Virus record (IMG/VR): IMGVR_UViG_3300045988_144418
Span: 1 to 64,000 of that record
DNA length: 64,000 bases
Strand: one strand, 5' to 3'
Source: a virus
A model generated the notes under the pieces. It was not told the DNA's origin and searched no databases. It was given only the letters and a program-made list of their open reading frames with translations. Below are positions 7,015-62,738 of this stretch, in pieces (the stretch's first letter is position 1; every line of letters starts with the position of its first letter). A program made the translations under genes and the position numbers.

Positions 7015-7058
7015 GTCATAGACAACTAAAAGGCCAGTTAGAGTATTTTTGAAATGAC

Positions 7059-7066
7059 TATATTTG
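7059..7066 (+). promoter_or_regulatory. -7 box TATATTTG upstream of 7104
   Basis: The context GAAATGACTATATTTGTCG resembles that of the other promoter copies. Confidence 0.4.
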
Positions 7067-7103
7067 TCGTGTGGTCAATGAATGATTAAAAATTACATAA
7101 GAG

Positions 7104-24631: not shown

Positions 24632-26266
24632 ATGGCGACAAGTGTTTATTTCAACGGTAAGATGAGAACACTCCCTGGGGTGTACTCCACTATTACTTCC
24701 GGAGATAACACCCAGACCAGAACTCTTGACTATGGCACGGTGCTCCTCATAGACACTGGAGTTTTTGGTAGCGGTTGGGGCGGTGGCTCCGGCGTGAATG
24801 GTGTTGACAAGCAGGGGAAGGATGCCGTCTACGAGTTTGATGACTTGCAGACATTCAGAGACTTTGTTAAGGGTGGTATGTACTGGAAAGCGACTGAAGC
24901 TCTTTTCACTCCAGACCCTTATAATCAGGATGCGGCTGGCATTAGCAGACTTTTGTTTGCTCGTGCCTGTACGACAACTCCTGCGAAGATGCAGTTTGCT
25001 TCCGGAAACAGCAAGTTTATCGTTAGGACGATTGACGAGGGCTTGAATGCCAACGGTGTTCTTGACGGTGAATATTTGAAGTTCGGTTATGCTTACACGG
25101 TAGAGCAGGGTACTGATGATGAATCAGCCTTTGTGGTGAAGTTTTGGAGAGGAACCTACACAGGCGACTACACTGATCCTGTGACAGGAGTGACGCTATC
25201 CTATGACGAGCTCACTGTTGCACAGGCGGAGCCATTGCTTATCTGTCAGTCTCCGGAAGTTCGGACTATTCAGGACTTGATTGCGTGGGCTAATGTTGAT
25301 GAAAACTTTGGTGCAAGGTTCATTCTTGATGCTGAATCTCGGTACACGGACGGTGATTCCATCACCAATCCAACACTGGACACCTATGTTTTTGCGGATG
25401 GTGGCACGGAAGACTACAAGCCTACTGATCTTGATGATCTTCTTAACGCCATTCCGGATGTGGACTACAACATTGTGTTCACGGATCAGATTGAGGCTAA
25501 TGCTAATTCCGCTCAGCAGAAAAAAGTGATTGCTCATCGTAACACACAGGCGAAGTTTGACAAATTTGTGTATGTCGGTGCGTACAGCACAAAGGCAAAA
25601 TTCAATGACTCTCTGAATGTGGCCAAGACTATGAACAATCAGTGGATTGTTGCTGTTCACGGTGGTGTGGCCACGGCTTCTGACGCCACGGCATCAGGGT
25701 TCAGGTGGTGGACAGTGTTCTACAATTTGTGTCAGATTGTTGGCAGGGTGTCTGGAAAACCACCTTACATTCCAGTGACGAACAAGACCATTGGTGGTGA
25801 TAAGCTTCAGCACATTCCTACTGAAAAGGAAATGGAGAAAGCTCTTAAGTTCGGTCTTGTGGTTGTTTATCCTAATCCATATCTCCAGAGGTTCGTGGTT
25901 CTTCAGGGTGTTACTACTCTTCAGGACAATACGTTGCTCTTCAACAAAAAGGGTGCGTCATTTAGCATTCAGTTTATGCGTATCATTGCACAACTGAATA
26001 AGGAGTGTGTTGTGAACGCTTCCATTGATCTCCTTGGGGACGAGAACGGTGTGAATATCAATACACTGTCAAAGGGTGCTCTTGAGACTTGGACAGCTAA
26101 TTTTCTCCAGACGAGGGTGGCCACGGATCAGCAGGACAACCTGATTCAGAGGTTCCAAAATGTTGTTGCCAAGAGGGTGGATGACTGTTATCACGTTTCC
26201 TATGAGGTTGTTCTCAACAATGAGGCGACGAAGATATTCTTTACGGGATTCCTTCTCAGAAACTAA
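24632..26266 (+). CDS. contractile tail sheath protein
   Basis: The N-terminus MATSVYFNGKMRTLPGVYSTI is typical of sheath proteins. The 544-aa protein is followed by tube, chaperone and tape measure genes. Confidence 0.6.
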   Translation: MATSVYFNGKMRTLPGVYSTITSGDNTQTRTLDYGTVLLIDTGVFGSGWGGGSGVNGVDKQGKDAVYEFDDLQTFRDFVKGGMYWKATEALFTPDPYNQDAAGISRLLFARACTTTPAKMQFASGNSKFIVRTIDEGLNANGVLDGEYLKFGYAYTVEQGTDDESAFVVKFWRGTYTGDYTDPVTGVTLSYDELTVAQAEPLLICQSPEVRTIQDLIAWANVDENFGARFILDAESRYTDGDSITNPTLDTYVFADGGTEDYKPTDLDDLLNAIPDVDYNIVFTDQIEANANSAQQKKVIAHRNTQAKFDKFVYVGAYSTKAKFNDSLNVAKTMNNQWIVAVHGGVATASDATASGFRWWTVFYNLCQIVGRVSGKPPYIPVTNKTIGGDKLQHIPTEKEMEKALKFGLVVVYPNPYLQRFVVLQGVTTLQDNTLLFNKKGASFSIQFMRIIAQLNKECVVNASIDLLGDENGVNINTLSKGALETWTANFLQTRVATDQQDNLIQRFQNVVAKRVDDCYHVSYEVVLNNEATKIFFTGFLLRN

Positions 26267-40866: not shown

Positions 40867-40878
40867 ATAGATTGCGAT

Positions 40879-41763: not shown

Positions 41764-41775
41764 AGGAAGTGAATT

Positions 41776-42351: not shown

Positions 42352-42382
42352 TCAGTCTGATTAAGTTAGAAATGATTTCGTT

Positions 42383-42910
42383 ATGTTGTATGACACAGAC
42401 ATTTATCAGAACATTGTTCTGACTCTATATGATTATCTTCAACGAAGTGTGAAGAAGATGCCACGTTCCATAAAGTGGGAAAAACCGTCTCATCGAAAGA
42501 CGGTTATTTCTTTTATAGAAAGTCTTCCTGATACAGCAGGGGTACAGTTTATTTGGGATTTTCTGGTTTTCCAGTTTTACATCTATAATTTTCAGGATCA
42601 AAAGTTGCGACCTCTTCCCGCTTGGTTTATGGGTAAGGAAGCGTGGGATCGGTGGAAATCTTATGATAGTGGTGCAAGGTATCACGCTTTTGAATGGGCA
42701 GGTGAACATCATATAGAAAATCCATTGAGAAATGTAAATTATAAAAATGTTGCACAGAGTGTGTTGGAAGCGGAAAGGCTGAGAATGTCTCGTATATCTG
42801 GGCCGAATTATTGTGGTTTGAAGTATGATAACCCCTATGATGGATCCAGTAGAATGTGCATGTCATGTCCATTTGTATGGGACTGTGATACTCTTTATGG
42901 AGGGAAATGA
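42383..42910 (+). CDS. hypothetical protein (175 aa)
   Basis: ORF preceded by the AGAAATGATTTCGTT element. It has a Cys-rich C-terminus (CMSCPFVWDC). Confidence 0.5.
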   Translation: MLYDTDIYQNIVLTLYDYLQRSVKKMPRSIKWEKPSHRKTVISFIESLPDTAGVQFIWDFLVFQFYIYNFQDQKLRPLPAWFMGKEAWDRWKSYDSGARYHAFEWAGEHHIENPLRNVNYKNVAQSVLEAERLRMSRISGPNYCGLKYDNPYDGSSRMCMSCPFVWDCDTLYGGK

Positions 42911-42911
42911 T

Positions 42912-43307
42912 ATGGGTGTAAAGGGAGTTTGTCGTAAGTGTGGACGTGAGACAGTGATAGTTAATAAGACGCACTGTTTGTGTAGTGGCTGTAATTATAG
43001 GCGACTGCATAATGGTCTGTCACGGTTTGAATATAAGTTTATGACGATGAAGTTTCCGGAGCGAGCACGGAAAAAGCGTACTGGGGAGGCGGAGCTTTTT
43101 AGGGAGATATGGGCGGAGCGACCACACATTTGTTCACATTGTGGCCGACAGCTTCCTCCTCCTATGCGAGCAGGTTATTTCAGCCATATTCATTCCAAGG
43201 GGGCAAGACCTGACTTGCGGCTTTGCAAGGATAATATAGAATTGTTATGTCTGGAGTGTCATTCACGGCACGAATTTGGATTTAATTATGAAAGAGATTC
43301 TCATTAA
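42912..43307 (+). CDS. HNH endonuclease (zinc-ribbon plus HNH)
   Basis: CRKCGRE..CLCSGC and CSHCGRQ zinc-ribbon motifs are followed by HIHSKGARPDLRLCKDNIELLCLECHSRHE, an H-N-H pattern. The start could also be 42897. Confidence 0.65.
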   Translation: MGVKGVCRKCGRETVIVNKTHCLCSGCNYRRLHNGLSRFEYKFMTMKFPERARKKRTGEAELFREIWAERPHICSHCGRQLPPPMRAGYFSHIHSKGARPDLRLCKDNIELLCLECHSRHEFGFNYERDSH

Positions 43308-43677: not shown

Positions 43678-43690
43678 AAATGATTTTGTT

Positions 43691-44350
43691 ATGAATTCCA
43701 CGATTAGGTACATAATTGTTGGTGACAGTGAGACTGGAGGGCTTCCTAATAAGGGCAAACAGGCTTTCTATGACATTGCACTGTGTGAATTTGCCTTTGT
43801 CGTTATAGATATTCAGGAAATGAAAGTGGTGGAGGAATGGAGTACACTCTTTAGACCCTATAAGGACAATCTTGAGTATAACCCCCAGGCACTTGAGGTC
43901 AATGGTCTTACGGTTGAACAGTTGCAGAAAAGCGGTGATGACCTGAAGAACATCTATAAGGAAATGATCATGTTGTTTAAGAAGTATAAGAATCCTCGTA
44001 TAGGAGCGGTACTTGCAGGACATAATTTTCAGCCGTTTGATATGCCTTTTCTCACTAATATGTTTGAGTTTTGCGGTGATAGCATCTGGAATTATGTCAC
44101 GTTCGTGGAGGACACCATGAAGCTGGCTTGGTATCGTGCCAAGGAGCAGGAAAATTACAAGCTCGGAACGTGCTGTCGTATGGAGGGTGTTGATTTGGTT
44201 AACGCTCATCGTGCGCTTGCTGACACAAAGGCGAACGCCCTGTTGCTTTTGAAATACATTTCCTATATGCGTGGCTCTGGAGAGGGTTCGAGCGTTGCGA
44301 TTCCAAGAATGAAGCCGTCTTCCTTTAGAGAGACCTTTCAACTTGTGTAG
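43691..44350 (+). CDS. DEDDh 3'-5' exonuclease (DnaQ / Pol III epsilon-like)
   Basis: ExoI IVGDSETGGL, ExoII AGHNFQPFDMPFL, ExoIII HRALADTKAN. Confidence 0.75.
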   Translation: MNSTIRYIIVGDSETGGLPNKGKQAFYDIALCEFAFVVIDIQEMKVVEEWSTLFRPYKDNLEYNPQALEVNGLTVEQLQKSGDDLKNIYKEMIMLFKKYKNPRIGAVLAGHNFQPFDMPFLTNMFEFCGDSIWNYVTFVEDTMKLAWYRAKEQENYKLGTCCRMEGVDLVNAHRALADTKANALLLLKYISYMRGSGEGSSVAIPRMKPSSFRETFQLV

Positions 44351-46452
44351 TGATGATTGAGTTTAATGAGAATAACAGTCTTTCTTTTCGGCAGCTGGAT
44401 AGTATTATAGACACCACAACGAGAATAGTGCAGAATCTCCCTGTAAAAGCCATAAATCAGCTTATGGAGGGGTATAGGGGGGATCAGGATGCTATGTTGT
44501 CAGAGATGTTTCGTCAGACAGAGAATGTTCTGAAGTTGAACACTACATTGGAAACTGAACGTCTTTCCTATGTCGATCAGCTTATTGAGAGCATGGATGA
44601 GTCCTTGAAGATAATGTCATACAATTACTTCAAGACTACAATGCTTCCTAATTTTAGACAGGGGTGGAGAAATCTTGAGTGGGGTAATATGATTCAGCTG
44701 TACCCGAATAGTGCTTATCTTGCGGCTCGTTCTCATGGGAAGTGCTTTTTGGCTGGAACTCACATCTTGATGGCTGATTGGACAGTGAAGAATGTGGAGG
44801 ACATCTATCCTGGGATGGAGGTGATGGGTATGGACTTTACCCCAAGAAAGGTTTTCACACGGCATATTGGTCGGTCACAGATGTTTACGGTGCACCAGGA
44901 GAATGGCATTTCCTATACCGTGAATAGATTCCACATTCTCTGCCTATGGGATACAAAGAGGAAACACTATGTTGAGGTTCCGATGGGAAATTTTCTGAAA
45001 TATCCTCAAGAAAAACAGAATAGGTTTAGAGGGTACAGAGTGTTTTCGAGCGACAACCCTATACTGGAATATTCTCCTATAGCGGTTGAACCGTATGGTG
45101 ATGGATCCTACTATGGTTTTGCCTGTGACGGTGATCATAAGTTTCTTCTGGAGGACAATACTGTTGTTCATAATTCGTATGAATTTTGTATGGGGCTTCC
45201 TCTGTGGAGGATGTACTCCTATCGTAGACCAAATTTTATGAAGCCTGATATTCCGGACAATAGGAATAGAAAGGAAACTTGCATTATAACCAACACGGAG
45301 ACACTCGGTAAGGAGCATCTGGATAAGATTAAGGAGGAGATTCATACCAATGAAGCACTTTCAGCGGTGCTTAATCCGAACGGCAAGGCTTCGCTTGGAG
45401 CTACTGGCTTTGAGTGTGAGAATGGATCCAAACTGCATCTTAGAGGGAAGGACGGATTCATTCGAGGTCTTCACGTGGGTGCGGCTGTGTCTGATGACCT
45501 CCCTGATGATAGCTCCATCTATAGTCTGGAGCAGAGAGAGAAGTTGAGAGACCTGTTTAAGGGTGCTATCACCCCTATTGTAGAGCCGTATGGATATAAT
45601 ATCGTGGATGGCACACCGTATCAGGCACAGGATCTTTATTATGAGTTGAAGCAGGATCCGAAATTTATGGTGTTTGAGTATCCAGCCATATTTCCTGACG
45701 GCAGACTTTTGGCACCTGATCGTTTTACGTTTGACAAGTTGATGGAGGAAAAGAAGTCCGTGGGTACGCTTGTGTTTAGCCGTGAGTATCTTGTTGTTCC
45801 TATTTCTGACGATTCCACCATTTTTCCTATGGAGATATTAATGCGAAGCACGATAGGAATGGAGAATGTGCGACTTGTAGATAATATTGAATCGTTTCCA
45901 TTCAAGTTGTCCAGAGTGGTTGTAGGGTGTGATTTTGCCGTGTCAGGAAATGTGGGTGCTGACTACACTTGTTATACGGTATGGGGGAAGGATTTGAATG
46001 GTTCCTATTATCTTCTGTACATCTATCGGGAAAAAGGTTTGTCACATAATGAGCAGATAAACAAGATAGAGTACTTGAACACGGTGTTTAAGCCGAATGA
46101 GATTGTGGTGGAGAATAACGGTTTTCAGTCCATTCTTGCTGATATGTGTGTACAGAGAGGAATCAAAAATATATATCCGTTTACCACTACTTCAGGAAAC
46201 AAGAAGGACTTGCGAACAGGGTGGGCGTCGCTTGCAGCTCTATTTGAGAGAGGTGATATACGATGTCCGTATCATCCTGACACACGACAGAGGATAGACA
46301 CTATGTTTGGGGAGTTTACATCTATTGCGTTTCGTTCTGATAAAGGTACACTGGAATCCATTAGCGGTCACGATGACACAGTATCATCCTCGTTTATGGC
46401 AATAAATAGATTACGTGAATCAGCTGTTCAGATAAAGGTTGATGCAGTATAA
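44350..46452 (+). CDS. terL: terminase large subunit, interrupted by a mini-intein in the Walker A motif
   Basis: After removal of the intein, Walker A reads AARSHGK|SYEF. Walker B-like GAAVSDDLPDD. Nuclease-domain acidic motifs VVGCDFAVSG, IVVENNGFQ and GHDDTVSS. The start is GTG 44350 or ATG 44353. Confidence 0.75.
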   Translation: MMIEFNENNSLSFRQLDSIIDTTTRIVQNLPVKAINQLMEGYRGDQDAMLSEMFRQTENVLKLNTTLETERLSYVDQLIESMDESLKIMSYNYFKTTMLPNFRQGWRNLEWGNMIQLYPNSAYLAARSHGKCFLAGTHILMADWTVKNVEDIYPGMEVMGMDFTPRKVFTRHIGRSQMFTVHQENGISYTVNRFHILCLWDTKRKHYVEVPMGNFLKYPQEKQNRFRGYRVFSSDNPILEYSPIAVEPYGDGSYYGFACDGDHKFLLEDNTVVHNSYEFCMGLPLWRMYSYRRPNFMKPDIPDNRNRKETCIITNTETLGKEHLDKIKEEIHTNEALSAVLNPNGKASLGATGFECENGSKLHLRGKDGFIRGLHVGAAVSDDLPDDSSIYSLEQREKLRDLFKGAITPIVEPYGYNIVDGTPYQAQDLYYELKQDPKFMVFEYPAIFPDGRLLAPDRFTFDKLMEEKKSVGTLVFSREYLVVPISDDSTIFPMEILMRSTIGMENVRLVDNIESFPFKLSRVVVGCDFAVSGNVGADYTCYTVWGKDLNGSYYLLYIYREKGLSHNEQINKIEYLNTVFKPNEIVVENNGFQSILADMCVQRGIKNIYPFTTTSGNKKDLRTGWASLAALFERGDIRCPYHPDTRQRIDTMFGEFTSIAFRSDKGTLESISGHDDTVSSSFMAINRLRESAVQIKVDAV
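44743..45174 (+). mobile_element. class-1-type mini-intein (144 aa, no homing endonuclease domain) within terL
   Basis: It begins CFLAGTHILMADW (Cys1, Hint block A) right after GK of the P-loop. It ends LLEDNTVVHN, followed by Ser+1, which restores GKS. Confidence 0.75.
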
Positions 46453-46472
46453 TAAAATAGAAATGATTTTGT

Positions 46473-48011
46473 ATGCAGACAAAGAAATTTGATGCGGTCT
46501 TGAGTCCGACATTTGTTGAAGAAATGCTTCGGCTCGCATATTCCAACAAGACATTCGCAGGGCTTGTGGTTGAGAATGTTAATGTAAGCAATTTTCCTCG
46601 TGAGCTTGGTGCGTGTAAGGCAATGCTCAAGGTACTGGCTGATAACTATCGTAATGGAGTATTTGCCACCTTGGGAATGGTTGAGATGGCCTTTCCGAAG
46701 AGTGATGAAGTAGCCAAGAAGATTTCTGAAATTAAGAATATGCCTGTTCCTCCCTATGATGGGATGGTTAAGCAGTTGGAAACATTCATTCGTCGGCAGA
46801 CATTTGTGGCTGTGCAGCATGAAGTGAGTGATATGTATAATGAGGGTAAGCCTGACGAAGCGATGGACTTGTTGGGGCGCAGGATGTCTGAAATACTGTC
46901 CTTTTCTTTGAAGCAGGGTGCAAAGGGGAAATTTTCCAGAATATATAGGGACTTTGTGCGTAACATAGCGATTGCACAGCAGAAGCAGGATGATGAGGTT
47001 AAGCGTCCAAAGATTCCTCTTGGCATCACGTCTTTGGATGATTTAACTGACGGTGGTGTTCCTCGGCAGGATACTGTTCTTTGGATTATGCGTTCCGGAG
47101 TGGGAAAATCCACGGCCTTGAAATATCATGCTTGGTACAATACGTCAATATCACATAATCACTGTCTTCACATCCAGCTGGAGGGTGGTGAGCAGGAGGC
47201 AGTGGTGAAGTTTGATCAGATGCTTGCACAGACAACCTATGCAAAGGTTTTGCGAGGTGATATTACGTCTGACACTCAGAAGCGTGTGCAGTCACTTATC
47301 AGAAGGGCTGTTACGGTGAATTCTGATATAGACGTGTATGCTTCCGAGGAGATGATGGAAATGACGATAGCTGACATTGTCAAGGTGGTGGAGGATTATT
47401 ATCTGGAGTATGGCTATTATCCTGATCTGATAACAGTTGATTCCATTGATCTTTTGCTTACAGGGCAGAACAGCAAGATAGACTATGATCCTAACTTTAT
47501 TAAGTATAGACTACAGAAGTGTGCACAGCGGTTAAAGGATCTTGCCACGAAGTATGATTGTGTCGTGATGACAGCCACTCAGACCTGTGATGTTCCTATG
47601 GAACTATGGAACGATCCATCTCGTGTCATAACACGTCAGCACACAGAGGGTGATAGAACACTGGTCAAGCCGTTTTCCTTTGTGTTTACAGGTAATGTAA
47701 CCATTGAGGAGGGTGCTCAGAACGTTATGCGTATATTCTGTGATAAGTTTCGAAATTATCGAAATAACGGAATAATTGTGAAGATACCGACCAACTATGA
47801 GAACGGCTTCTTTTACGACCTAAAACGTTCCGTAAAGGAGGAACAGGTACTTGATATGAACGCTATGCTGAAGATGGATGGCGCTCCTACACGCAGAAGA
47901 CGCACAAGTGATGGCAGACAGACGGAGACAAAGACGGTTGAGGTGTCAAGCGGTGTGTTCGTGACTCAGAATGTTGAGAAGAAGAAAGTGCCGCAGAAAA
48001 GGGGTGTCTGA
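46473..48011 (+). CDS. DnaB-like replicative helicase
   Basis: Walker A IMRSGVGKST, Walker B LITVDSIDLL, and MTATQT. The protein is 512 aa and the primase gene follows. Confidence 0.6.
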   Translation: MQTKKFDAVLSPTFVEEMLRLAYSNKTFAGLVVENVNVSNFPRELGACKAMLKVLADNYRNGVFATLGMVEMAFPKSDEVAKKISEIKNMPVPPYDGMVKQLETFIRRQTFVAVQHEVSDMYNEGKPDEAMDLLGRRMSEILSFSLKQGAKGKFSRIYRDFVRNIAIAQQKQDDEVKRPKIPLGITSLDDLTDGGVPRQDTVLWIMRSGVGKSTALKYHAWYNTSISHNHCLHIQLEGGEQEAVVKFDQMLAQTTYAKVLRGDITSDTQKRVQSLIRRAVTVNSDIDVYASEEMMEMTIADIVKVVEDYYLEYGYYPDLITVDSIDLLLTGQNSKIDYDPNFIKYRLQKCAQRLKDLATKYDCVVMTATQTCDVPMELWNDPSRVITRQHTEGDRTLVKPFSFVFTGNVTIEEGAQNVMRIFCDKFRNYRNNGIIVKIPTNYENGFFYDLKRSVKEEQVLDMNAMLKMDGAPTRRRRTSDGRQTETKTVEVSSGVFVTQNVEKKKVPQKRGV

Positions 48012-49045: not shown

Positions 49046-49048
49046 GGT

Positions 49049-49507: not shown

Positions 49508-49534
49508 CGTTTTACTAAAAAGACAAAATAAAAG

Positions 49535-50678: not shown

Positions 50679-51413
50679 ATGGTTACGGATTCAGGAACCA
50701 TAATTCTTATCAAGGGGGTCAGTGGAAGCGGTAAATCCACAAGGGTTTATTGCTTCCTTGATTTCCTGGAAAGCATTGGAATGAAACTGAAGCCATATCA
50801 GTTTGTGAATATACTTGGACAGACACAGGAGATAGGCTTGTATTCAGAGGAGTTGAATATGCTTTTTCTGGGAAAGTTCTATGACGACAATGGTGTTCGT
50901 AGGTGGCAGGGGTTGGATGCTGTTACAGGGCGATTGCACACGGCTGAGGGTCTTTCCTATTTCCTGAAGTGGGCTGGTCAGCGGAAGTTGAATGTTGTGC
51001 TGGAGGGGGCTGGAACGTCCGTGACGTGGCGATTGCGTCCGATGGAGATATGTGCCGAGTATGAGTATCTAAATATTCTCTATTTGGTCTATACGTTCAA
51101 ACTGGAGCAGTATGATGACTATATCAGGAGAATAGAGTATCGCTCGGGCAAGGCTCCGAAAAGCGACGCTATGTGGCGGAAGCGCAAGGGGTTTGAATCA
51201 GACTATACTCAGACTGTTGCGGAAGCGAAGGACTTGAATGCAGCAGGAGCGGACATTGTCATCAAGTACAATCTTTTCGATGTTGAAGCATGGGATCTCG
51301 GTGTAAGCATTATGCAGTATTTCGGTCTTGACGAGTTGTGCGATGAGTTCAAGCTGTTTGTGGAGGGTGGTGGTTATATTGGGCAGAATTCCTATGAAAA
51401 CATTGGTAGATGA
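50679..51413 (+). CDS. P-loop kinase-like protein (candidate nucleotide or 5-hmdU DNA kinase)
   Basis: Walker A IKGVSGSGKST. The gene sits within the nucleotide-metabolism cluster. The substrate is unknown. Confidence 0.45.
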   Translation: MVTDSGTIILIKGVSGSGKSTRVYCFLDFLESIGMKLKPYQFVNILGQTQEIGLYSEELNMLFLGKFYDDNGVRRWQGLDAVTGRLHTAEGLSYFLKWAGQRKLNVVLEGAGTSVTWRLRPMEICAEYEYLNILYLVYTFKLEQYDDYIRRIEYRSGKAPKSDAMWRKRKGFESDYTQTVAEAKDLNAAGADIVIKYNLFDVEAWDLGVSIMQYFGLDELCDEFKLFVEGGGYIGQNSYENIGR

Positions 51414-52423
51414 GTAAAATAGTTCCAAATGACAATTTGACGTACCTCTTCTATTGGTGCTGTGAACGAATGAACATATTCTGGAAGCGGTATAATGGAG
51501 AGCAGTATCCATGGACTGATGATGAGATATTACAGCAGTATAAGTTCACAAATGTGTATCGGGTGCTGGATAGGTCAAGTCAGTATATGCTTCGTAACGT
51601 TATCTATAATGGTAAGCAGTATTCTCCGGAGGATATGTTTTTTCGTATTTTACTTTATAAGCATTTTAATCTTCCTGACACGTGGGGTGCCCTGATTAAG
51701 GAGTTTGGTGATATTACATACGACACCGGATGGGAGAACATTGCACGTTTTCTGGATGATAGAGGTAGACAGGACATCACCATCTATTCTAATGCCTTTA
51801 TGTTGACAGGGTGGTTTTATTCTCTTCCGGAGTATGCTAATATTCGTGGGACTTCAAAACATCGTGGATATTTTGAGGTGTTTAAGCGTCGAATTTTTGA
51901 TAATGGTAAGATTGATGCTTTTCTCAGTGCTGCAAGTTTTGAAGAGCTTTTTGGTATGTTTAAGGAGCTTGAACCATTTAGCGACTTCATGTCACAGCAG
52001 TATTGTCTTGACATGAATTATTCCCCTTTATACAACTTTACTGAGAATGACTTTGTGGTTGTCGGCCCTGGAAGTAAAAGGGGGATTCAATTTGCATTTA
52101 AGGGGGATCATAGAGATGACGGTGAAGTTGTTATCAGGTGGATGCAGGAGCACTTTGAGGAACTGATGACAAAGTTCTGTCAGGATTCAGGTATGATTTG
52201 GAATCCATTGCCGTGGGAGCCAGTGCCTACACTGACGAACATTCAAAATTGTTTTTGTGAGCTATCAAAGTATGCTAAATGTATGGGTGTGCAGTTTAAG
52301 AAGAATACTAAAGGTAGGATGAAAAATCTTTATACTACACCAAAATCAGAAATTTCTTATATGTTTCCACGGAAATGGAATGTTAAGATGCCGTTAAAAG
52401 GGCAGATAGAAACTTATAAATAA
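51410..52423 (+). CDS. candidate aGPT-Pplase-like DNA base hypermodification protein (alpha-glutamyl/putrescinyl thymine pyrophosphorylase family)
   Basis: PWTDDEILQQYKFTNVYRVLDR and PFSDFMSQQYCLDMNY..FVVVGPGSKRG resemble my recollection of that family. The assignment has not been verified by a search. Confidence 0.4.
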   Translation: MSKIVPNDNLTYLFYWCCERMNIFWKRYNGEQYPWTDDEILQQYKFTNVYRVLDRSSQYMLRNVIYNGKQYSPEDMFFRILLYKHFNLPDTWGALIKEFGDITYDTGWENIARFLDDRGRQDITIYSNAFMLTGWFYSLPEYANIRGTSKHRGYFEVFKRRIFDNGKIDAFLSAASFEELFGMFKELEPFSDFMSQQYCLDMNYSPLYNFTENDFVVVGPGSKRGIQFAFKGDHRDDGEVVIRWMQEHFEELMTKFCQDSGMIWNPLPWEPVPTLTNIQNCFCELSKYAKCMGVQFKKNTKGRMKNLYTTPKSEISYMFPRKWNVKMPLKGQIETYK

Positions 52424-52432
52424 AAAACGATT

Positions 52433-53560
52433 ATGGATTTTGTATTTGATAATCTTAGTCAGGCTTTTGTTGGGCTTTTAAGGGATCTTAAGGCTTTTGG
52501 TACTTGGACACAGAGGGGAACCAATTCAGCAGGAAATATGTGCTTGGAATTTCCAGAGCCAGTGCTTATAAAGATATATAATCCACTGAATAGATATGTT
52601 TTTGTTCCGGAGCGCAAGTGGAACAAGACGTTGGGGTGGATTGAATCACTCTGGATTGCCAGAGGTGACAACTCGCTTGAAATGCCGTCAGCCTATGTCA
52701 AGAACCTGTTGACGTTCTCCGATGACGGTGAGACAATGCGTGCAGGATACGGCCCGAGGATTCGTGCCTTTGGTGGTCATCTGTGGAAGAAAGGTGTTCG
52801 ATTTGAAGAGGGTTCACCGCTATACTGGATGAAGCAGCAGTATGATTCCAGATATGGGAATGGTACGGTTGCCGTTGTGGATCAGTTGAAATTTGTGATT
52901 GACAAATTTAAGCAGGATCCAACCACGAGGGAGGCTGTCATTACGATTCATGACCCTATGGCTGATGACTTCAGTGGCAAGGAGATTCTTAGAACGAAGG
53001 ACACCCCTTGCACACGCTCCATTCACTTTATGATCGTAGATGGCAAGATGAACTGTTACGTGGATATGAGATCTAATGATCTGTTCTGGGGCTTCAGTGC
53101 TGTCAATGTCTTCAATTTCACTTTGATGCAGGAGTATGTCGCCGCGATGGTGGGTGTGCCTGTGGGGGTATATTATCACAAAGTTGATAATTTGCACATG
53201 TACGAAGGATCTTTGCCTATGGCTAGGAATATTACTTCTATTTATGGAACAATGGCAGCAGTTGAAAAATGGTCTGACTTATATAGTTTTGATGAGGAAT
53301 TAGATTGGCACGGTTATAAACATACATTTACCACATTGGAGGTCTTTGACAATCTAATAGCGTTGCTATCTGAGTTTGAGCGTGGGATGCGTGGTGTCGA
53401 TGATTTGCCGTACAGCAAGGATGAAGCTCTGGAAACAATGAACATGATGTTTGGGGGTGAGCCGATGTTTATGGACTGGGCAAAGGTTATCTATCGTAAG
53501 TGGTCAAAGGACACGACCGTGACATTTGACAATCCGTATCTGACAAAGTTATTTGTCTGA
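52433..53560 (+). CDS. thymidylate synthase-fold enzyme (ThyA family; dUMP hydroxymethylase or thymidylate synthase) with a C-terminal extension of about 110 aa
   Basis: ESLWIARGDN; TPCTRSIHFMIVDGKMNCYVDMRSNDLFWGFSAVNVFNFTLM; DNLHMY. These align with the E. coli ThyA catalytic Cys146, R166, S167, D169, N177, H207 and Y209. Confidence 0.8.
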   Translation: MDFVFDNLSQAFVGLLRDLKAFGTWTQRGTNSAGNMCLEFPEPVLIKIYNPLNRYVFVPERKWNKTLGWIESLWIARGDNSLEMPSAYVKNLLTFSDDGETMRAGYGPRIRAFGGHLWKKGVRFEEGSPLYWMKQQYDSRYGNGTVAVVDQLKFVIDKFKQDPTTREAVITIHDPMADDFSGKEILRTKDTPCTRSIHFMIVDGKMNCYVDMRSNDLFWGFSAVNVFNFTLMQEYVAAMVGVPVGVYYHKVDNLHMYEGSLPMARNITSIYGTMAAVEKWSDLYSFDEELDWHGYKHTFTTLEVFDNLIALLSEFERGMRGVDDLPYSKDEALETMNMMFGGEPMFMDWAKVIYRKWSKDTTVTFDNPYLTKLFV

Positions 53561-53680
53561 AGTTACTTTGTAGAAACCATAAGAACAGCCGTGCAACCTC
53601 TGGTCGGGAAGCCTGTGATAGGTAAGGAGGAAGTTCGAGACTTCTCACGGCTGCAAGAACTAAATAAAAATGATTTCGTT

Positions 53681-54220
53681 ATGAACTACAAAAAGATTGA
53701 CTATCTACTTCAGATGAAGCAGATACAGAGACTTCCAAATGTCCCCCATCATAGAAGTTATAATATTCTTGAGCACAGCTTTGTAGTCGGTATGCTTTTC
53801 AGGTGGTTTGCTTCCGCCTGTGATGTCTCCTACGATATAAATGTGTGGGATAAGGTGCTTATGCACGACTATCTTGAAGCATTTACAGGGGATTTGAACT
53901 TTGTTGTTAAGAATTTGACAGAGAAGACATCAAGTGCGTGGGCGACGATAGAGAAGGAGGTCTGTGATCATGACACTGTTTTGAATCATTATTCTGATGA
54001 AGCCATAAAGTCCGCCATGACGGAGGAGCAGCGCATTCTCTTTAAGGTGTGTGACTATCTTGATTTGTGGATTTTCTGCAAGCAGGAGGAGGCACTTGGT
54101 AATACCACGATTGGAAACAAGACCGTTATAGATAACTGTAAGAAGCTCATCTATGGTCTCTGTGGGCAGGATAGAAAGTGGTTTCCTATCTTTGATTTTA
54201 TGTGCAAATATACAGCGTAG
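53681..54220 (+). CDS. HD-domain phosphohydrolase (YfbR-like 5'-deoxynucleotidase candidate)
   Basis: ILEHSFVV ... LMHDYLEAFTGDL gives the H...HD...E..D metal-binding pattern. The start is set at the ATG after the AAAAATGATTTCGTT element. Confidence 0.6.
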   Translation: MNYKKIDYLLQMKQIQRLPNVPHHRSYNILEHSFVVGMLFRWFASACDVSYDINVWDKVLMHDYLEAFTGDLNFVVKNLTEKTSSAWATIEKEVCDHDTVLNHYSDEAIKSAMTEEQRILFKVCDYLDLWIFCKQEEALGNTTIGNKTVIDNCKKLIYGLCGQDRKWFPIFDFMCKYTA

Positions 54221-54222: not shown

Positions 54223-54885
54223 ATGGATGAAAGAACCCCAGTTGAGATATATGCCTTTGTCGGGGTGATTGGCTCCGGCAAGAGCTATCGGCTTGAGCAG
54301 ATGAAGAGAGAATACAATGGTGTCGGTCAGGTTGTCATTACCGCTGACTTTTCAGATGGTATTCGAGATCTAACACGTCAGCTTTTGGGGTATGGTGCTA
54401 ACTTCGGTGATGTGAATTCACAGGAATATCGTGACTGGAAGGAGAACGTGGCCTGTGTGACAGTTCACAATGGAGCGGTGGTGAATTCTTTCACTGGACG
54501 TGATGTGTTGCGTAATGTGGGAGAGTCCACGAAGTGTATTGCAGGTCAGAACGTGTGGGCGAGATATACGACACAGTCCTTATATTCACGCATAGCGTAT
54601 CAGGCATTTCGCTCTGATTTATGTGTGAGTGGTGTTCGGGTGCTTATAGGGTCAGTGCGATTCAAGTGCGAGGCTCGGAGCATATTTGAGCTCTTTAGCG
54701 ATGTAGCAGCCAATATGGATAGCTTTATGAATCCGTCCTTGCACTTTATATTCTGCGACTATCACTCGTCGAGCTATGATGCGGCAAGTGGTCACGTCAG
54801 TGAGGCACTTGCACAGATCGTGTTGAATACAGGCAAGTACAAGGATGGTGATGATATCACCGAACTGATAGACACAATGGTATGA
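54223..54885 (+). CDS. deoxynucleoside monophosphate kinase (T4 gp1-like)
   Basis: P-loop FVGVIGSGKSYR. FSDGIRDLTRQLLGY and GRDVLRNVGESTKCIAGQNVWARY parallel the T4 gp1 segments PIKDALAYAWG and VRRLMQALGTDL..MYWVKLF, which I am recalling from memory. Confidence 0.5.
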   Translation: MDERTPVEIYAFVGVIGSGKSYRLEQMKREYNGVGQVVITADFSDGIRDLTRQLLGYGANFGDVNSQEYRDWKENVACVTVHNGAVVNSFTGRDVLRNVGESTKCIAGQNVWARYTTQSLYSRIAYQAFRSDLCVSGVRVLIGSVRFKCEARSIFELFSDVAANMDSFMNPSLHFIFCDYHSSSYDAASGHVSEALAQIVLNTGKYKDGDDITELIDTMV

Positions 54886-57800
54886 GACAGGAATTTGAAC
54901 AGTATCTACAGAGGAACCTGATGTCATATACGGAGGTCAGTCCTTATGTGTATGAAATAGATGGTAGGACATTCGAACTCTATAAGCCTGACAATGATGG
55001 CGCATTGTTTGACGATGACTTCAGGTTTACAGGCATTCCGGCCAATTTAGCGAGATACACCTCCACTGAGAAAACGGTGGACACACAGTGTGACTTTTAT
55101 GCCTATAAGTTTGGAGGAGTGTGGTATATGCTTCCAAGGGATGATAGAGACAAGGTTAAGTTGAAGCGCCTGAAATATCTTGGGGAAGCGGTGCAGGAGA
55201 TTCCAACACCTGTCTTTATGGGTGTTCATGGTCAGTATGAGATTATGTCGGGCTCCGGAACGTATGCTGATTGGTGTGCAAAGGCGAAGTTCTACGGTGT
55301 TACGACACTTGGTATCTGTGAGAAGAACACTTTGTCGGGTGTCTTGAAATTTCAGGTGGAATGTCAGAAGAACGGCCTGAAGCCTGTTATCGGGATGGAA
55401 TGCACTGTATATGATATTGTCAAGGACTTTAGGTTCACGGCCAAGGTGTTTGTCAGAAATGAGGTGGGTTGGCAGAGCATCCTCACTATGTCGGAAGCCA
55501 TTAACTGTGATAATCCTGGGTATATTCTCATTGACCAGTTTAGAGAGGAAATAAGCCGAAATGCGGAAGGATTGGTGGTGGTTGCAGACCCCAAGACGAC
55601 TGACTATGACAAGTTCGCTGAAATCGGTCTAAAAATAGATTACTATCAACTTGACCCTGTTAGATATGCGGAAGAATCTCGTGATGAAGTGTATTTGAAG
55701 AACCTGAGAAAATTTTATCATAGTGGTATGCTTGCTCTTCCTATGGCTGATGCTTGGTATCTGGACGAGGAGTATAGCTGTATCAGATCGAGACTTGCAA
55801 GCATAGGTGGATCTAACTTTTATGACAGTGATGATCAGTGGTTTAAGCCGAATGATGTATTGTTCTGTCAGCTTGCTGACATGTTTCCAAGCACGGATGA
55901 TGGTCTGGGGCTTGCGTACCAGGACTTTTTAGATGGGCTTGAAAGGTTGATGGATCTTGCTGATAGCATTGGCTTTATCGTGGACACAACCAAACGCCAT
56001 CTTCTACGCTACATTATGACAGAGGATGAAGCCGCTAAGTATGTCACCAATGAGGATATGTTCTGGGGGCTTATTGACGAGGGACTTCAGCGGCATCCTG
56101 AGCTGATTGAACAGTACGGTGAGGATGTGGTGATGGAACGCATTGATAGAGAAGTTGGTGTAATTAAGTTGGGGGATACAATCGATTACTTCCTAATTAC
56201 GAGGGATATTGTGAATTGGTGTCATCATAATGATATTATGACAGGTATATCCAGAGGTTCGGCAGGAGGGTGTCTTATCTCGTATCTTCTTGGGATCACA
56301 AAGTTGGATCCAATAGGCTATAATCTACTTTTTGAGAGGTTTTTGAACGAGGGTCGTGTAAAGAAAAGTCTTCCTGATATAGATACGGATTTCCCTGGAG
56401 AAGACCGAGGAAAAGTCAAGCAGTATATGGAACAACGATTTGGGGAGGTTAATGTCTGTTCTGTGGGTACTTATTCCGCCTTGCAGCTGAGAGCGGCTAT
56501 CAAGGACATGTCTCGTGTGTATGGGCTGGAGTTTCAAGAGGTGAATGATATGATGAAACTCTTTGCCGTGGATGATCGTAAGCCTGAAGACCTGTTTAGG
56601 ATAGCGTGTGCACAGCCACGTGTGAAGAAGTTTGTTAGAGAGCATTCTGACTTGGTGAATGAGGTGATGCTGATTATGCCAGCCCCCAAGGCACGTTCCG
56701 TTCACGCCTGTGCCACTATGATATTTCCGAAGGAGCACGATATGTTTCACTGGACACCTATTCGCAAACAGAACGGAGAGTATGTGACTGAGTGGGAGGG
56801 TGGTGAAATGGACGGTGCAGGATTTCTGAAGAATGATATCTTGGGTATTAAGCAGCTTGATAAATTTCAGAATATGGTGCGTCTTGTCAAGGAGAACGAG
56901 GGTGTTGATGTGGATATTTTCAATGTGCCGCTTGACGATTCAGAGGTGTATCGTTACTTTCAGAACGGCTGGACGGAGGATAATTTTCACTTCGGCTCTC
57001 GTGGTTTGACAGGCTACTGTAAGGAGATGAAGCCTGAAAACATAGAGGACTTGATTGTGGCCATCGCCCTGTATCGTCCTGGAGCAATGGAGAACGGCTT
57101 CCATACGGAGTATGTTAAGCGTAAGGAGGGTGCGCCTGTAAGTTACTTTGTAGGTTCCGAGGAAATTCTTTCCAATACTTATGGGATTTTCTGTTTTCAG
57201 GAACAGATCATGGAGTTGTGTAAGCATCTTGGGGGGCTTTCACTTGTGGAAGCTGATGACGTGCGAAAGGCGATGGTGAAGAAGAAGTACGAAGCACTTC
57301 ATCAGTATCATCCAAGATTTGTTGACAACTATGTGACACAGTTCGGTGTCACGAATGAATATGCTGAAAGTGTGTGGGATGCTATTGACAAGGCTTCCAC
57401 TTACCTGTTTAACCGTTCTCATGCTGTCGCCTATGCTCTTACTGGCTATATCTCGCAGTGGATGAAAGTACACTACCCAATAGAATACTGGAGTGTTGCG
57501 TTCAAGGAAGCGATGACGGAGGATTACCCTCGCTATATTGCTGAGATTAACAAGACAGGTGTCTGCACGGTGAGGTCTGTGGATATCAATCTGTCGGGAA
57601 CAGGCGTGTATATTGACTTTGCGGCCAGAACGCTCTATTGGTCTGTCACAGGCGTTAAGCAGGTGGCTGAAAAGGCGGCTACACAGATACTCAAGGAACG
57701 TGATGAGAATGGTAGGTATTGGTCTTTGGATGACTTTGTGACACGACATAAGTGGAAAGGGTCAGCGGTGAACACGAGGGTTGTGCAGAATCTTATTCTC

Positions 57801-58364
57801 GCAGGGGCATTTGATGACGTGGAGAACATCACTGATGCCTCTCAGAGGGTGGAACTATTGATATCCTATCTTGCTTCCACAAAAAACAAGTTGAATGAGA
57901 CTGATCCTATTATAGCAGGGTTTGACATTCACAGGAATGATGCTTGGTGGTGGCAGCTTATGCAGAAGAAACTTTCAGGGCTTGCATTCTTTGACTATGC
58001 AGGTCTTTATGACAAGGTGAAGCAGTTTTTCCCTGTTGACTATGAGTATTATACCTTTGAGGAATGTAGTGACGTGGAATATCGTCCTAACAGGGGATAT
58101 GTCATTGTTGGTGGGTATGTGTCAGCGATAGACCTGAAAAAAACCAAGAAAGGAGACATTCTATGCCGTATAACACTGGAGAACAACTATGAGTTTCTGG
58201 ACTTGGTTGTATTCCAGACGGAATATGAGCGGCTTCAGGAGGAGATTGCTGCAAGCAAGGATAATATCGTGCTTTTGAATGCAACACTTTACTATGACGC
58301 ACGGAATGATAAAAACGCCTTGCGTGCTGATATGGAGACATCCATTGTGACATTTAAGTTATAA
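54882..58364 (+). CDS. dnaE: DNA polymerase III alpha subunit (DnaE-type replicative polymerase)
   Basis: 1160 aa. PHP region FMGVHGQYE..LGICEKNTLSG. Palm signature GISRGSAGGCLISYLLGITKLDPIGYNLLFERFLNEGRVKKSLPDIDTDF. Also ALYRPGAME and FNRSHAVAYA. Confidence 0.9.
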   Translation: MRQEFEQYLQRNLMSYTEVSPYVYEIDGRTFELYKPDNDGALFDDDFRFTGIPANLARYTSTEKTVDTQCDFYAYKFGGVWYMLPRDDRDKVKLKRLKYLGEAVQEIPTPVFMGVHGQYEIMSGSGTYADWCAKAKFYGVTTLGICEKNTLSGVLKFQVECQKNGLKPVIGMECTVYDIVKDFRFTAKVFVRNEVGWQSILTMSEAINCDNPGYILIDQFREEISRNAEGLVVVADPKTTDYDKFAEIGLKIDYYQLDPVRYAEESRDEVYLKNLRKFYHSGMLALPMADAWYLDEEYSCIRSRLASIGGSNFYDSDDQWFKPNDVLFCQLADMFPSTDDGLGLAYQDFLDGLERLMDLADSIGFIVDTTKRHLLRYIMTEDEAAKYVTNEDMFWGLIDEGLQRHPELIEQYGEDVVMERIDREVGVIKLGDTIDYFLITRDIVNWCHHNDIMTGISRGSAGGCLISYLLGITKLDPIGYNLLFERFLNEGRVKKSLPDIDTDFPGEDRGKVKQYMEQRFGEVNVCSVGTYSALQLRAAIKDMSRVYGLEFQEVNDMMKLFAVDDRKPEDLFRIACAQPRVKKFVREHSDLVNEVMLIMPAPKARSVHACATMIFPKEHDMFHWTPIRKQNGEYVTEWEGGEMDGAGFLKNDILGIKQLDKFQNMVRLVKENEGVDVDIFNVPLDDSEVYRYFQNGWTEDNFHFGSRGLTGYCKEMKPENIEDLIVAIALYRPGAMENGFHTEYVKRKEGAPVSYFVGSEEILSNTYGIFCFQEQIMELCKHLGGLSLVEADDVRKAMVKKKYEALHQYHPRFVDNYVTQFGVTNEYAESVWDAIDKASTYLFNRSHAVAYALTGYISQWMKVHYPIEYWSVAFKEAMTEDYPRYIAEINKTGVCTVRSVDINLSGTGVYIDFAARTLYWSVTGVKQVAEKAATQILKERDENGRYWSLDDFVTRHKWKGSAVNTRVVQNLILAGAFDDVENITDASQRVELLISYLASTKNKLNETDPIIAGFDIHRNDAWWWQLMQKKLSGLAFFDYAGLYDKVKQFFPVDYEYYTFEECSDVEYRPNRGYVIVGGYVSAIDLKKTKKGDILCRITLENNYEFLDLVVFQTEYERLQEEIAASKDNIVLLNATLYYDARNDKNALRADMETSIVTFKL

Positions 58365-60762: not shown

Positions 60763-61788
60763 ATGAAACAACCTTTAGCGATAATCAGCACCGATTGGCA
60801 TCTCAAGACTGACAACAAGGAATCTATTTTGAGCATTGCGAAGCAGGAGATTCAGTCGGCTCAGGATCGTGGTGTGGACACGGTTATATGGCTTGGTGAT
60901 ATGTTTGACAGCAGAACAAGCCAGAGTCAGGAACTTCTTACCTTTATGGATAGCATTCTGAATATGTACTATCTTGCAGGGTTGACCGTACACTGCATTC
61001 CTGGAAACCACGATAAGACAGACTATGGGGATGACAGAAGTTTTTTGACAGTGTTCAAGTATCATCCTGACTTTCATCTTCATGAAACGCCTGATATGGT
61101 GGATTTTGGTGGCGTGAAGTTCTGGTTTATGCCGTTTTATCGGCAGGATGTGTATCTGGATAGATTTCAGATGTGTATGCCGTTGGGTCGATGTGTTCTG
61201 TTTAGTCATACGGCTATCTCAGGTTCAATTAACAATGACGGCAGTAAGGTGGAATCACCTATCAATGCTTCACTGTTTAAGGGGTTTGAAAAGGTCTTTC
61301 TTGGGCACTATCATAATAGACAGCAGCCAGCGAAGAATATCTTTCATCTACCGAGTGTTCAGCAGAACAATTTTGGGGAGGATGAGGATAAGGGTTTTAC
61401 CGTGCTATATGATGACTTATCCTTTGAACTTGTAAGGTCGGTTTTTAAGCCTTACAAAGAGATTGTGGTTGATGCACGGACAGTCACCTCGGAGGAACTT
61501 GTGGAACTCTCTAAATCGTCCGTTGATGGGGTGAACTTGCGTCTTACATTCACGGGAGATCAACAGGCGGTGAAGAAGATTGATCGTAAGAAGTTTACAG
61601 CCGTCGGCATAAGTGTGCAGGTCAAGTATGATGATGTTGATGTGGATGAAGTGGATAGACAGCAGGACATTGTTGCTATGACTGGAACAAATATTGCAGA
61701 GAAATTTGAGGAATTCTGTAAGGAAAAAGGTTATGATTATGTAAGGGGCTATGAATTATTAAAGGAGGTAATGAAATGGCAGGAATAG
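60763..61788 (+). CDS. sbcD: SbcD/Mre11-type nuclease (T4 gp47-like)
   Basis: Calcineurin-like phosphoesterase motifs: STDWH, WLGDMFD, IPGNHD, FSHTAISG and LGHYH. Confidence 0.75.
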   Translation: MKQPLAIISTDWHLKTDNKESILSIAKQEIQSAQDRGVDTVIWLGDMFDSRTSQSQELLTFMDSILNMYYLAGLTVHCIPGNHDKTDYGDDRSFLTVFKYHPDFHLHETPDMVDFGGVKFWFMPFYRQDVYLDRFQMCMPLGRCVLFSHTAISGSINNDGSKVESPINASLFKGFEKVFLGHYHNRQQPAKNIFHLPSVQQNNFGEDEDKGFTVLYDDLSFELVRSVFKPYKEIVVDARTVTSEELVELSKSSVDGVNLRLTFTGDQQAVKKIDRKKFTAVGISVQVKYDDVDVDEVDRQQDIVAMTGTNIAEKFEEFCKEKGYDYVRGYELLKEVMKWQE

Positions 61789-62738
61789 AAGAACTTGTAT
61801 CAACATTGCAGAAGAAGTTCGGCAAGGAGATTGTGGCTGGAAACACTTCACAGGAGGTAACTTTCATATCATCAGGCAGTATGGGTCTTGACTTGGCTCT
61901 GGGTGGTGGATACCCTCTCGGCAGAATAGTGGAACTCAGAGGGTATGAATCCAGTGGCAAGACAACGCTTGCTCTGACAGCTTGTGCAAGCATACAGAAA
62001 CAGACAGGCAAGGCGATTGTCTATGTGGACAGAGAGAACGCCATTGATATGGACTATGTTAAGGCACTGGGTGTGGATATTTCACCACAGATGTTCATTC
62101 TTACACAGGCCGGAACGGCTGAGGAGTGTCTGGAGATTATACGTGAATCAGCGAAGTCTGATGCAGTGGGTGGCATCGTTATGGATTCAGTGGCCGCTAT
62201 GTTTCCACGATGCTATCTGGAAGCGGAGGTGGGGGATGCCAAGATGGGTGTTCTGGCACGTCTGATGTCAGCGTGGCTTCCAGGGATTGTGGGTGACTTG
62301 AAAAGAAACAACATTATCGCTTTATTTATCAATCAGTATCGTGAAAAGATAGGTGTGATGTATGGTTCGCCTAAGACAACCCCAGGAGGAAAGAGTTTGG
62401 GTTTTTACGCAAGTCAGATTCTGGATATTGCCAAGTCAGGTGTTATTGGTGACAAGGGTGAGGAATCAGCCATTCACGTTAAGGTGCGTGTGGAAAAGAA
62501 CAAGGTTGCTCCACCGTTGCGTAAGGCGGAGTTTGATATTCGCTTCGGTGAGGGTGTGGACAGAGCGTCCGAGGTGCTTGACCTTGCCGTTGAATATGGT
62601 GTTGTGGACAAGAAAGGATCGTTCTTCCGTTATAACGGTGACTTAATCGGTCAGGGTTCGGAAAAGGCAAGGACTTTTCTTGCTGACAATCTTGAACTGA
62701 TGCAGGAGATAGAAGCAAAGGTGACTGAAAAGATTTAG
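61776..62738 (+). CDS. recA: RecA-family recombinase
   Basis: GRIVELRGYESSGKTTLAL (Walker A), VMDSVAAM, and FINQYREKIGVMYGSPKTTPGGKSLGFYAS, which is very close to the bacterial RecA L2 region. Confidence 0.9.
   Translation: MAGIEELVSTLQKKFGKEIVAGNTSQEVTFISSGSMGLDLALGGGYPLGRIVELRGYESSGKTTLALTACASIQKQTGKAIVYVDRENAIDMDYVKALGVDISPQMFILTQAGTAEECLEIIRESAKSDAVGGIVMDSVAAMFPRCYLEAEVGDAKMGVLARLMSAWLPGIVGDLKRNNIIALFINQYREKIGVMYGSPKTTPGGKSLGFYASQILDIAKSGVIGDKGEESAIHVKVRVEKNKVAPPLRKAEFDIRFGEGVDRASEVLDLAVEYGVVDKKGSFFRYNGDLIGQGSEKARTFLADNLELMQEIEAKVTEKI

Follow-up and report, generated by a model that had tools for sequence, protein, structure and literature searches.

The large terminase gene (terL) in the virus record IMGVR_UViG_3300045988_144418 (IMG/VR), of which positions 1 to 64,000 were analyzed (64,000 nucleotides, hereafter the window), is interrupted by an in-frame insert at positions 44743..45174. 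We hold with high confidence that this insert is a genuine class 1 mini-intein of the VMA1/Prp8-like Hom_end_hint type, very probably competent for splicing, and that it lies between the Walker A Lys and Ser of the terminase large subunit (TerL). A first-pass annotation of the window had proposed a 144-aa mini-intein in the TerL P-loop at this position, and reading of the DNA showed its placement to be correct to the base.

The codon AAG (Lys) at 44740-44742 is followed directly by TGC (Cys) at 44743-44745, and CAT AAT (His-Asn) at 45169-45174 is followed by TCG (Ser) at 45175-45177, in agreement with the proposed Cys1 start, His-Asn end and Ser+1, all of which are invariant in the relatives described below. 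The insert between these junctions measures 432 nt, or 144 codons, and stays in frame, its flanks reading ...YLAARSHGK / C...VVHN / SYEFCMGLPLW..., where slashes mark the predicted splice points; this agreement goes well past what chance would give. It is contained in a single long open reading frame (ORF) of the + strand, listed as 44350/44353..46452 and encoding 700/699 aa. The TAG stop codon of the upstream gene occupies 44348-44350 and the stop codon of terL 46450-46452. The probable start of terL is the ATG at 44353, with a GTG at 44350 as the alternative; a database protein identical to the window TerL (P0001, 699 aa) begins at the position of this ATG. The parts of the gene are as follows.

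44353..46452, + strand: terL precursor gene, 699 aa (phrog_38, Terminase_6C, P0001)
44353..44742, + strand: N-extein, 130 aa, ending with the first seven Walker A residues, AARSHGK (DNA reading)
44743..45174, + strand: very probable class 1 mini-intein, Hint domain only, 144 aa (PF05203, structural model, Foldseek, absence in homologues)
45175-45177, + strand: Ser+1, predicted splice nucleophile and also the Walker A Ser (S275, at least 90% conserved in family alignment A4)
45175..46449, + strand: C-extein, 425 aa, comprising the remaining ATPase part and the RNase H-like nuclease domain (DNA reading)

The precise absence of the insert in related proteins was revealed by a comparison with the best 120 database homologues of the in-silico spliced extein. 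In 92 of the 120 a Cys follows the GK, and these proteins are 692-903 aa long, whereas the remaining 28 are without exactly the intein segment, measure 550-567 aa and read GK-S/T-[YF]-E at the same place. Among intein-less metagenomic proteins, P0090 reads AARSHGKSFEF and P0093 reads AARASGKSYEF, while the 555-aa TerL of Bacteroides phage DAC19 passes without insert through AARGHSKSFCF and ...AARGHSKSFCFSYAYPLW.... The alignment with intein-less homologues that had been suggested as a check thus returned a precise 144-aa insertion. A search with the intein alone recovered three fragments, owing to the word index limit of that search, and the wider family was therefore collected with the extein query and by tblastn against phages.

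The host protein is matched by the PHROGs family phrog_38 ("terminase large subunit", E-value 3e-51) and, above the cut-off, by Pfam Terminase_6C (PF17289, E 2e-9), the latter over residues 526-687, which correspond to the C-terminal RNase H-like nuclease domain. The window holds one TerL and one Hint domain, and no second copy of either was found in it. The ATPase domain was recognised neither by Pfam nor by phmmer against the PDB, even with the in-silico spliced extein; T7 gp19 came into view only with a profile built from 17 homologues that have no intein. This profile matched gp19 (4bij) with an E-value of 8.7e-7, as well as the TerL nuclease domains 5tge and 5m1f. In the gp19 alignment the profile stretch "..laarssgksyelsyafplW.." pairs with LQAFRGIGKSFITCAFVVW, where the Walker A stretch of gp19 reads AFRGIGKS, and the segment GAAVSDDLPDD pairs with the Walker B region and is Walker B-like. 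R126, G129 and K130 are invariant in the family alignment A4, and S275 is replaced by Thr in some empty alleles. Excision in silico gives AARSHGKS, which fits the [AG]x4GK[ST] form of Walker A and bears out the earlier claim that a canonical A-x4-GKS motif is restored. The collinear alignment with gp19, together with the invariant residues, identifies AARSHGK/S as Walker A, with the insert between its Lys and Ser, and the host enzyme belongs to the T7 gp19-like, Terminase_6C type of terminase large subunit.

The insert itself shows the ordered blocks of an intein, with a short linker in place of an endonuclease domain.

44743..44781, + strand: block A, CFLAGTHILMADW, with Cys1 (codon 44743-44745) as predicted first nucleophile; C1, T6 and M10 do not vary across the 92 mini-inteins
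44911..44952, + strand: block B, SYTVNRFHILCLWD, an NxxH variant of TxxH, with N61 at 44923-44925 and H64 at 44932-44934 (alignment)
44953..45096, + strand: linker remnant, residues 71-118 (alignment to three full-length inteins: P0092, P0096, Salmonella phage Segz_1)
45097..45174, + strand: blocks F and G, GDGSYYGFACDGDHKFLLEDNTVVHN, closing with His143 (penultimate) and Asn144 (terminal) at 45169-45174 (alignment)

Sequence and fold comparisons agree on the family. With the Pfam Hom_end_hint profile (PF05203; E 1.2e-16) the insert scores 61.9 bits, above the curated threshold of 32.1, so the proposed search with Hint-domain profiles gave a clear hit. In the PDB, phmmer found matches to PI-SceI, the VMA1 intein of yeast (E 1.6e-9), to the Prp8 inteins of Cryptococcus (E 4.5e-6) and to nothing else, and the alignment covers both ends of the insert (CFLAGTHILMAD versus CFAKGTNVLMAD and SYYGFACDGDHKFLLEDNTVVHN versus DYYGITLSDDSDHQFLLANQVVVHN); in PI-SceI, block A pairs with residues 1-13, CFAKGTNVLMADG, while the C-terminus, YYGITLSDDSDHQFLLANQVVVHN, pairs with blocks F and G. 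An AlphaFold2 (AF2) model of the intein built from 21 homologous inteins reached a mean predicted local distance difference test score (pLDDT) of 95.3 and a predicted template modelling (TM) score of 0.87. With this model, Foldseek against the PDB placed two Prp8 inteins first (TM 0.86-0.89, E about 4e-14) and PI-SceI domain I next, and all of the 50 matches listed have the Hint fold (inteins, bacterial intein-like domains, Hedgehog). No match to PF05204, PF14528 or other endonuclease families was found by Pfam in the 144-aa insert, as the earlier annotation had expected from its length, while full-length inteins at the same site (P0092 and P0096) do have such a domain. The insert thus combines a Hint fold, Cys1, a block B and His143-Asn144 followed by Ser+1 with an in-frame position for which intein-less alleles exist, as in class 1 inteins, and the endonuclease domain is absent between blocks B and F, as in mini-inteins.

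Two other assignments of the Hint domain were considered and set aside. A class 3 intein would have Trp in block B, Cys in block F and Thr in block G (WCT), needs no N-terminal nucleophile and mostly begins with a residue that is not one, but here residue 1 is Cys and the residue before His-Asn is Val142 rather than Thr. Bacterial intein-like (BIL) domains reside in variable regions of poorly conserved proteins and not in catalytic motifs, as a rule cleave instead of splicing, and usually lack the +1 nucleophile; the insert, by contrast, interrupts an essential enzyme at its most conserved motif, has a +1 nucleophile and has empty alleles.

Several points weigh against our interpretation. The local gp19 Walker A stretch scores only 4.5 bits within the whole-sequence match of E 8.7e-7, and when the whole precursor was modelled by AF2, in which the intein reached pLDDT 75-91 and the nuclease domain was also modelled, the ATPase domain stayed below 50 (residues 62-129 and 276-498); because of the latter, the Walker A call rests on the motif, on residue invariance and on a weak collinear alignment to gp19. 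Block B has Asn for the consensus Thr and block F is without the usual Asp at F:4 (Gly125). In addition, we infer both the splicing chemistry and the dependence of packaging on splicing from the sequence. The substitution in block B (VNRFH) had been pointed out by the first-pass annotation, and Asn does replace Thr there, but it does not amount to a defect, because the active yeast VMA1 intein uses the same variant and at least 91 of the 92 relatives keep it. The splicing-proficient VMA1 intein has N76 in the place of Thr, forming an N76/H79 pair (PMC6805012), and the PI-SceI alignment indicates that it shares the missing F:4 Asp as well (PMC6805012), its YYG...DH.F block F resembling that of the window intein.

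The non-consensus blocks B and F would also fit a Hint domain that is dead for splicing or only cleaves, whether BIL-like or decaying, and that is either tolerated permanently or resides in a terL pseudogene. We regard this as extremely unlikely. A folded 16-kDa domain between the P-loop Lys and Ser is incompatible with nucleotide binding, the window holds only one terL, and phages that bear the intein are abundant; a BIL-like identity is further disfavoured by the position in a catalytic motif and by the +1 nucleophile. Moreover, the catalytic residues and Ser+1 are all invariant: C1, G125, F126, D129, D131, H132, H143 and N144 do not vary among 92 mini-inteins that diverge to 34% identity, the +1 residue in this set is always Ser, and N61 and H64 are kept in at least 91 of its members, the more distant intein of contig L002 (MT835760, from human faeces) having Ser at the N61 position. 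Besides Cys1, Cys67 and Cys128 are nearly invariant.

The substitution pattern also speaks against decay. The ratio of nonsynonymous to synonymous substitution rates (dN/dS) for the intein, about 0.03-0.045, is 0.045 between the window and L007 and 0.030 between the window and L008, two relatives from IMG/VR, with 0.066 and 0.041 for the corresponding exteins. In comparisons with more distant relatives the synonymous sites have reached saturation, and the proportion of nonsynonymous differences (pN) in the intein, 0.17-0.22, exceeds that of the exteins, about 0.14, only modestly. The intein is under purifying selection, its dN/dS being as low as that of the exteins. The identities of intein and exteins drop in parallel, from 99%/97% to 62%/72%, and this joint divergence indicates vertical descent in the clade of the window. 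Synonymous sites are fully saturated between 44353..46449 of the window and the relatives L009-L042, whose TerL is about 81% identical in amino acids (proportion of synonymous differences, pS, 0.75-0.98), so that the clade carrying only the mini-intein is old at the DNA level. Within this clade neither an empty nor a full-length allele was seen, and the mini-intein is present in every relative found at an extein identity of about 70% or more. The intein-bearing alleles occur on contigs of about 100 kb, some of which belong to clusters with hundreds to 1279 member sequences, and the carriers are accordingly successful and abundant phages.

The history of the element can be read from a sister lineage whose exteins are about 68% identical to those of the window. 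In this lineage, P0090 (554 aa; contig L003, terL 6001..7665) has an empty site, P0092 (903 aa; L004, 1392..4103) has a 349-aa intein with LAGLIDADG domains (PF05204 and PF14528), and P0091 (692 aa; L005, 6001..8079) has a 138-aa mini-intein, yet the exteins of the three proteins are 99.8-100% identical. The three contigs are syntenic, and comparison of L003 with L004 and L005 shows an exact insertion in the DNA as well; in L004 precisely 1047 nt separate AAG from AGT, with flanks that are 96-97% identical in DNA. Together the contigs capture the stages of intein homing as they occur in nature. A second pair consists of P0094, with an empty site (GKT), and P0096, with a 345-aa intein (GK...S, PF05204/PF14528), the exteins being 98.7% identical.

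The inteins of P0092, P0096, P0091 and MT835760 occupy the same GK/S site and belong to the same family as that of the window, with 34-50% identity. The ancestral architecture is seen in P0092 and P0096, whose inteins contain a LAGLIDADG endonuclease; the window intein is without it. When the window intein is aligned with those of P0092, P0096 and Segz_1, blocks A, B, F and G and the helical linker (EVPMGNFLKYPQEKQNRFRGYRV versus ETPVKEFIKFSENKKNRCKSYRV) are homologous, whereas the LAGLIDADG core of the 345-349-aa relatives is missing. Two short helices of the AF2 model (81-86 and 89-92) lie in this linker, which is homologous to the pre-LAGLIDADG segment of the full-length relatives, and the endonuclease deletion scar follows ...FRGYRV. 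As the sister lineage presents an empty site, a full LAGLIDADG intein and a mini-intein on near-identical exteins, the window element is an endonuclease-deleted descendant of a full-length intein. The deletion boundaries differ between the window intein and P0091, so the endonuclease was lost independently, more than once.

A free-standing HNH nuclease gene had been noted two genes upstream of terL, and this gene is real (phrog_144, E 2e-11).

42825/42912..43307, + strand: HNH endonuclease gene (phrog_144, E 2e-11; weak NinG-like Pfam match)

Situated 1.4 kb upstream of the insertion site, its product (42825..43307) could in principle home the intein in trans and keep it mobile, but we find this very unlikely. 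An orthologue that is 51% identical occupies the same position both in L003, where the site is empty, and in L005, which has a mini-intein, and L002 has one with 40% identity, so that the gene, a conserved neighbour of the packaging genes, occurs whatever the state of the intein. The homologous full-length inteins have their own LAGLIDADG endonuclease, and the joint divergence of intein and exteins in the window's clade points to vertical descent rather than mobility. The HNH gene was accordingly rejected as an intein-linked homing enzyme, and it has no particular tie to the intein. HNH genes beside terminase genes are a common phage packaging accessory, and the present gene probably encodes a packaging-associated or other core nuclease.

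On the interpretation as a splicing-competent mini-intein, a 699-aa precursor would be translated with a broken ATP-binding loop. Splicing would start with an N-S acyl shift at Cys1, aided by N61 and H64 of block B, after which Ser+1 would attack the thioester to give a branched ester. Cyclisation of Asn144, aided by His143, would then free the 16-kDa intein, and a final O-N shift would create the Lys-Ser peptide bond, restoring AARSHGKS and an active terminase of 555 aa (about 64 kDa). As the only terL in the window carries the insert, packaging would have to depend on this reaction. Mycobacteriophage TerL inteins from other insertion sites splice efficiently in a reporter (PMC5050341).

In evolutionary terms, the element goes back on this interpretation to an intein of roughly 345-350 aa with a LAGLIDADG homing endonuclease, which invaded the GK/S site and lost the endonuclease later; vertical descent then spread the immobile remnant across a large and abundant clade of human-gut myophages with genomes of ~100 kb. 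The mini-intein would persist because only an exact deletion removes it without destroying TerL.

An alternative account of this persistence is that the mini-intein has been domesticated as a switch, in which conditional splicing (responding to redox state, temperature, metal ions or timing) gates the packaging ATPase post-translationally. The presence of the intein in every relative at about 70% extein identity or above, its dN/dS as low as that of the exteins, and the near-invariance of Cys67 and Cys128 besides Cys1 would be in keeping with such a role, and a conditional-splicing or sensor function has been proposed for P-loop inteins (PMC5050341) and for the Prp8 intein (PMC6805012). However, any intein in an essential single-copy gene should be under strong purifying selection, since failure to splice is lethal; the rarity of exact deletion suffices to explain persistence; and relatives with an empty site are evidently viable. 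We therefore consider the switch improbable, and give similarly little credence to its specific form, co-option as a redox- or metal-sensitive splice through Cys1, Cys67 and Cys128 in a phage of an anaerobic gut host. If true, gating would explain why the intein is present, and as conserved as TerL itself, across a very abundant human-gut phage clade.

The element is an ordinary example of an already well-known phage phenomenon. The P-loop site between Lys and Ser or Thr is a "classic" intein site, and about 40% of all mycobacteriophage inteins are found in TerL (PMC5050341), in line with the earlier mention of TerL P-loop inteins in some actinobacteriophages. Terminases have been described as a common phage intein target (PMC4760082), and in actinophages a 2025 survey counted 293 inteins in TerL, the shortest of 134 aa (bioRxiv 10.1101/2025.01.02.630785). 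A close counterpart by position is TerL1-a of mycobacteriophages, which uses the same site, between the Walker A Lys and a Ser/Thr nucleophile (Kelley et al., 2016, PMC5050341). In that study the TerL inteins tested, site a not among them, spliced efficiently, and splicing was argued to be necessary for ATPase and pentamer formation. The host of TerL1-a is a Terminase_1 family protein of actinophages, whereas the window encodes a T7/Terminase_6C-like TerL of a gut Bacteroides-type myophage; in mycobacteriophage TerL of the Terminase_6 type, the intein is at the C-motif (site f) and not in the P-loop (PMC5050341).

Inteins in TerL are also known outside the actinophages. Salmonella phage Segz_1 has a full LAGLIDADG intein in the TerL P-loop (GGRG/C...HN/SGKT), and Acinetobacter phage vB_AbaM_ABMM1 has a P-loop mini-intein of roughly 149 aa (GHG/C...HN/TGKT), although in both the insertion point lies three residues earlier than the GK/S of the window, and they represent other TerL families in phages of Proteobacteria. 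Among gut phages, Yutin et al. (2021, PMC7886860) report of the Delta group of crAss-like phages, described as infecting Bacteroidetes, that "TerL typically contains an intein". Like the window phage, these are gut phages with TerL inteins, but they are podovirus-like Crassvirales with Hint-Hop inteins, in some cases two per TerL (PMC7886860), while the window phage has a tail sheath and a TerL only distantly related to theirs.

The VMA1 and Cryptococcus Prp8 inteins are the best matches among solved structures (TM 0.84-0.89), with an identity of only 18-27%. The Prp8 inteins are likewise endonuclease-less minis, of about 170 aa, whereas PI-SceI retains its LAGLIDADG domain. Their hosts are nuclear fungal genes, for V-ATPase A (also a P-loop ATPase) and Prp8, in contrast to the phage TerL studied here. 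A special evolutionary link to these fungal inteins was considered and rejected: tblastn of the window intein found inteins 30-44% identical to it in 234 deposited phage records (in helicases, tape-measure proteins and terminases), including the TerL inteins of Segz_1 and vB_AbaM_ABMM1 and helicase inteins of its family in Salmonella FSL SP-031-like, Klebsiella and Bacteroides BS162P1 phages, so the resemblance reflects a broad family common in phages.

The first-pass annotation had held an example in a Bacteroidota-type myophage to be worth documenting. That claim to novelty is weak, as P-loop, mini- and gut-phage TerL inteins have all been published, and current understanding is unchanged by the finding. 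What is particular here is modest, namely the combination of a T7/Terminase_6C-type TerL, the GK/S site and an abundant uncultured gut myophage clade that has the endonuclease-less form only. For annotation, the terL genes of this clade should be labelled as intein-containing precursors, since the ATPase is otherwise unrecognisable and Pfam sees only the nuclease domain. For intein biology, the alleles provide a clean natural homing-cycle series, usable to date endonuclease loss and to test regulation of packaging by a P-loop mini-intein. In addition, a compact 144-aa Cys1/Ser+1 intein from a phage infecting anaerobes is a possible splicing tool for biotechnology.

The assignment to a Bacteroidota-type myophage is itself reasonable. 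A tail-sheath gene at 24632..26263 (phrog_279, E 2e-26) points to a myophage. Cultured relatives are limited to the Bacteroides thetaiotaomicron phages DAC16, DAC19, DAC20, DAC22, DAC23 and SJC03, at 34% TerL identity. Megablast of positions 40000-50000 of the window against deposited phages gave no match, and the phage thus has no close cultured or deposited relative at the DNA level.

Among the neighbouring genes, a DEDDh/RNase T-type exonuclease gene (43691..44350, +; PF00929, E 1.6e-11) abuts terL, and the exonuclease-terL synteny is kept as far as Bacteroides phage DAC19 (30% identity). Downstream, the window has a helicase gene at 46473..48011 (512 aa; phrog_19, E 8.5e-39) with an empty P-loop site, RSGVGKSTALK. 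In MT835760 the DnaB-like helicase just downstream of terL (L002, 8116..10641) also has a P-loop intein, which reads SGTGK/ALTLDS...FIVTHN/TTVLK, starts with Ala and contains a LAGLIDADG endonuclease; with Trp in block B, Cys in block F and Thr-His-Asn at its end, it looks like a class 3 intein.

Further downstream, the region 50679..54217 (+) encodes a 5-hydroxymethyldeoxyuridine (5-hmdU) DNA kinase 2 (PF18747, E 5e-22) and the helical domain of a 5-hmdU DNA kinase (PF18723, E 4e-74), together with a thymidylate-synthase-like enzyme and a YfbR-like 5'-deoxynucleotidase; the relatives L003 and L005 also encode TAGT (PF20691). It is likely a thymidine-hypermodification cassette, and the virion DNA is probably base-modified. 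A DnaE-type DNA polymerase III alpha subunit (54882..58364, +; 1160 aa) and RecA (61776..62738, +; 320 aa) follow, both frequent intein hosts elsewhere, though no Hint-domain match was found in either of these phage proteins. Finally, a 206-aa ORF at 15124..15744 (+) is flanked by a tail-fibre gene and by the gene of an SU10-like major capsid protein (13531..15048). Its C-terminal domain resembles endonuclease VII (phrog_3281, E 2.9e-8), and the structural module may thus harbour a free-standing nuclease of the homing type.

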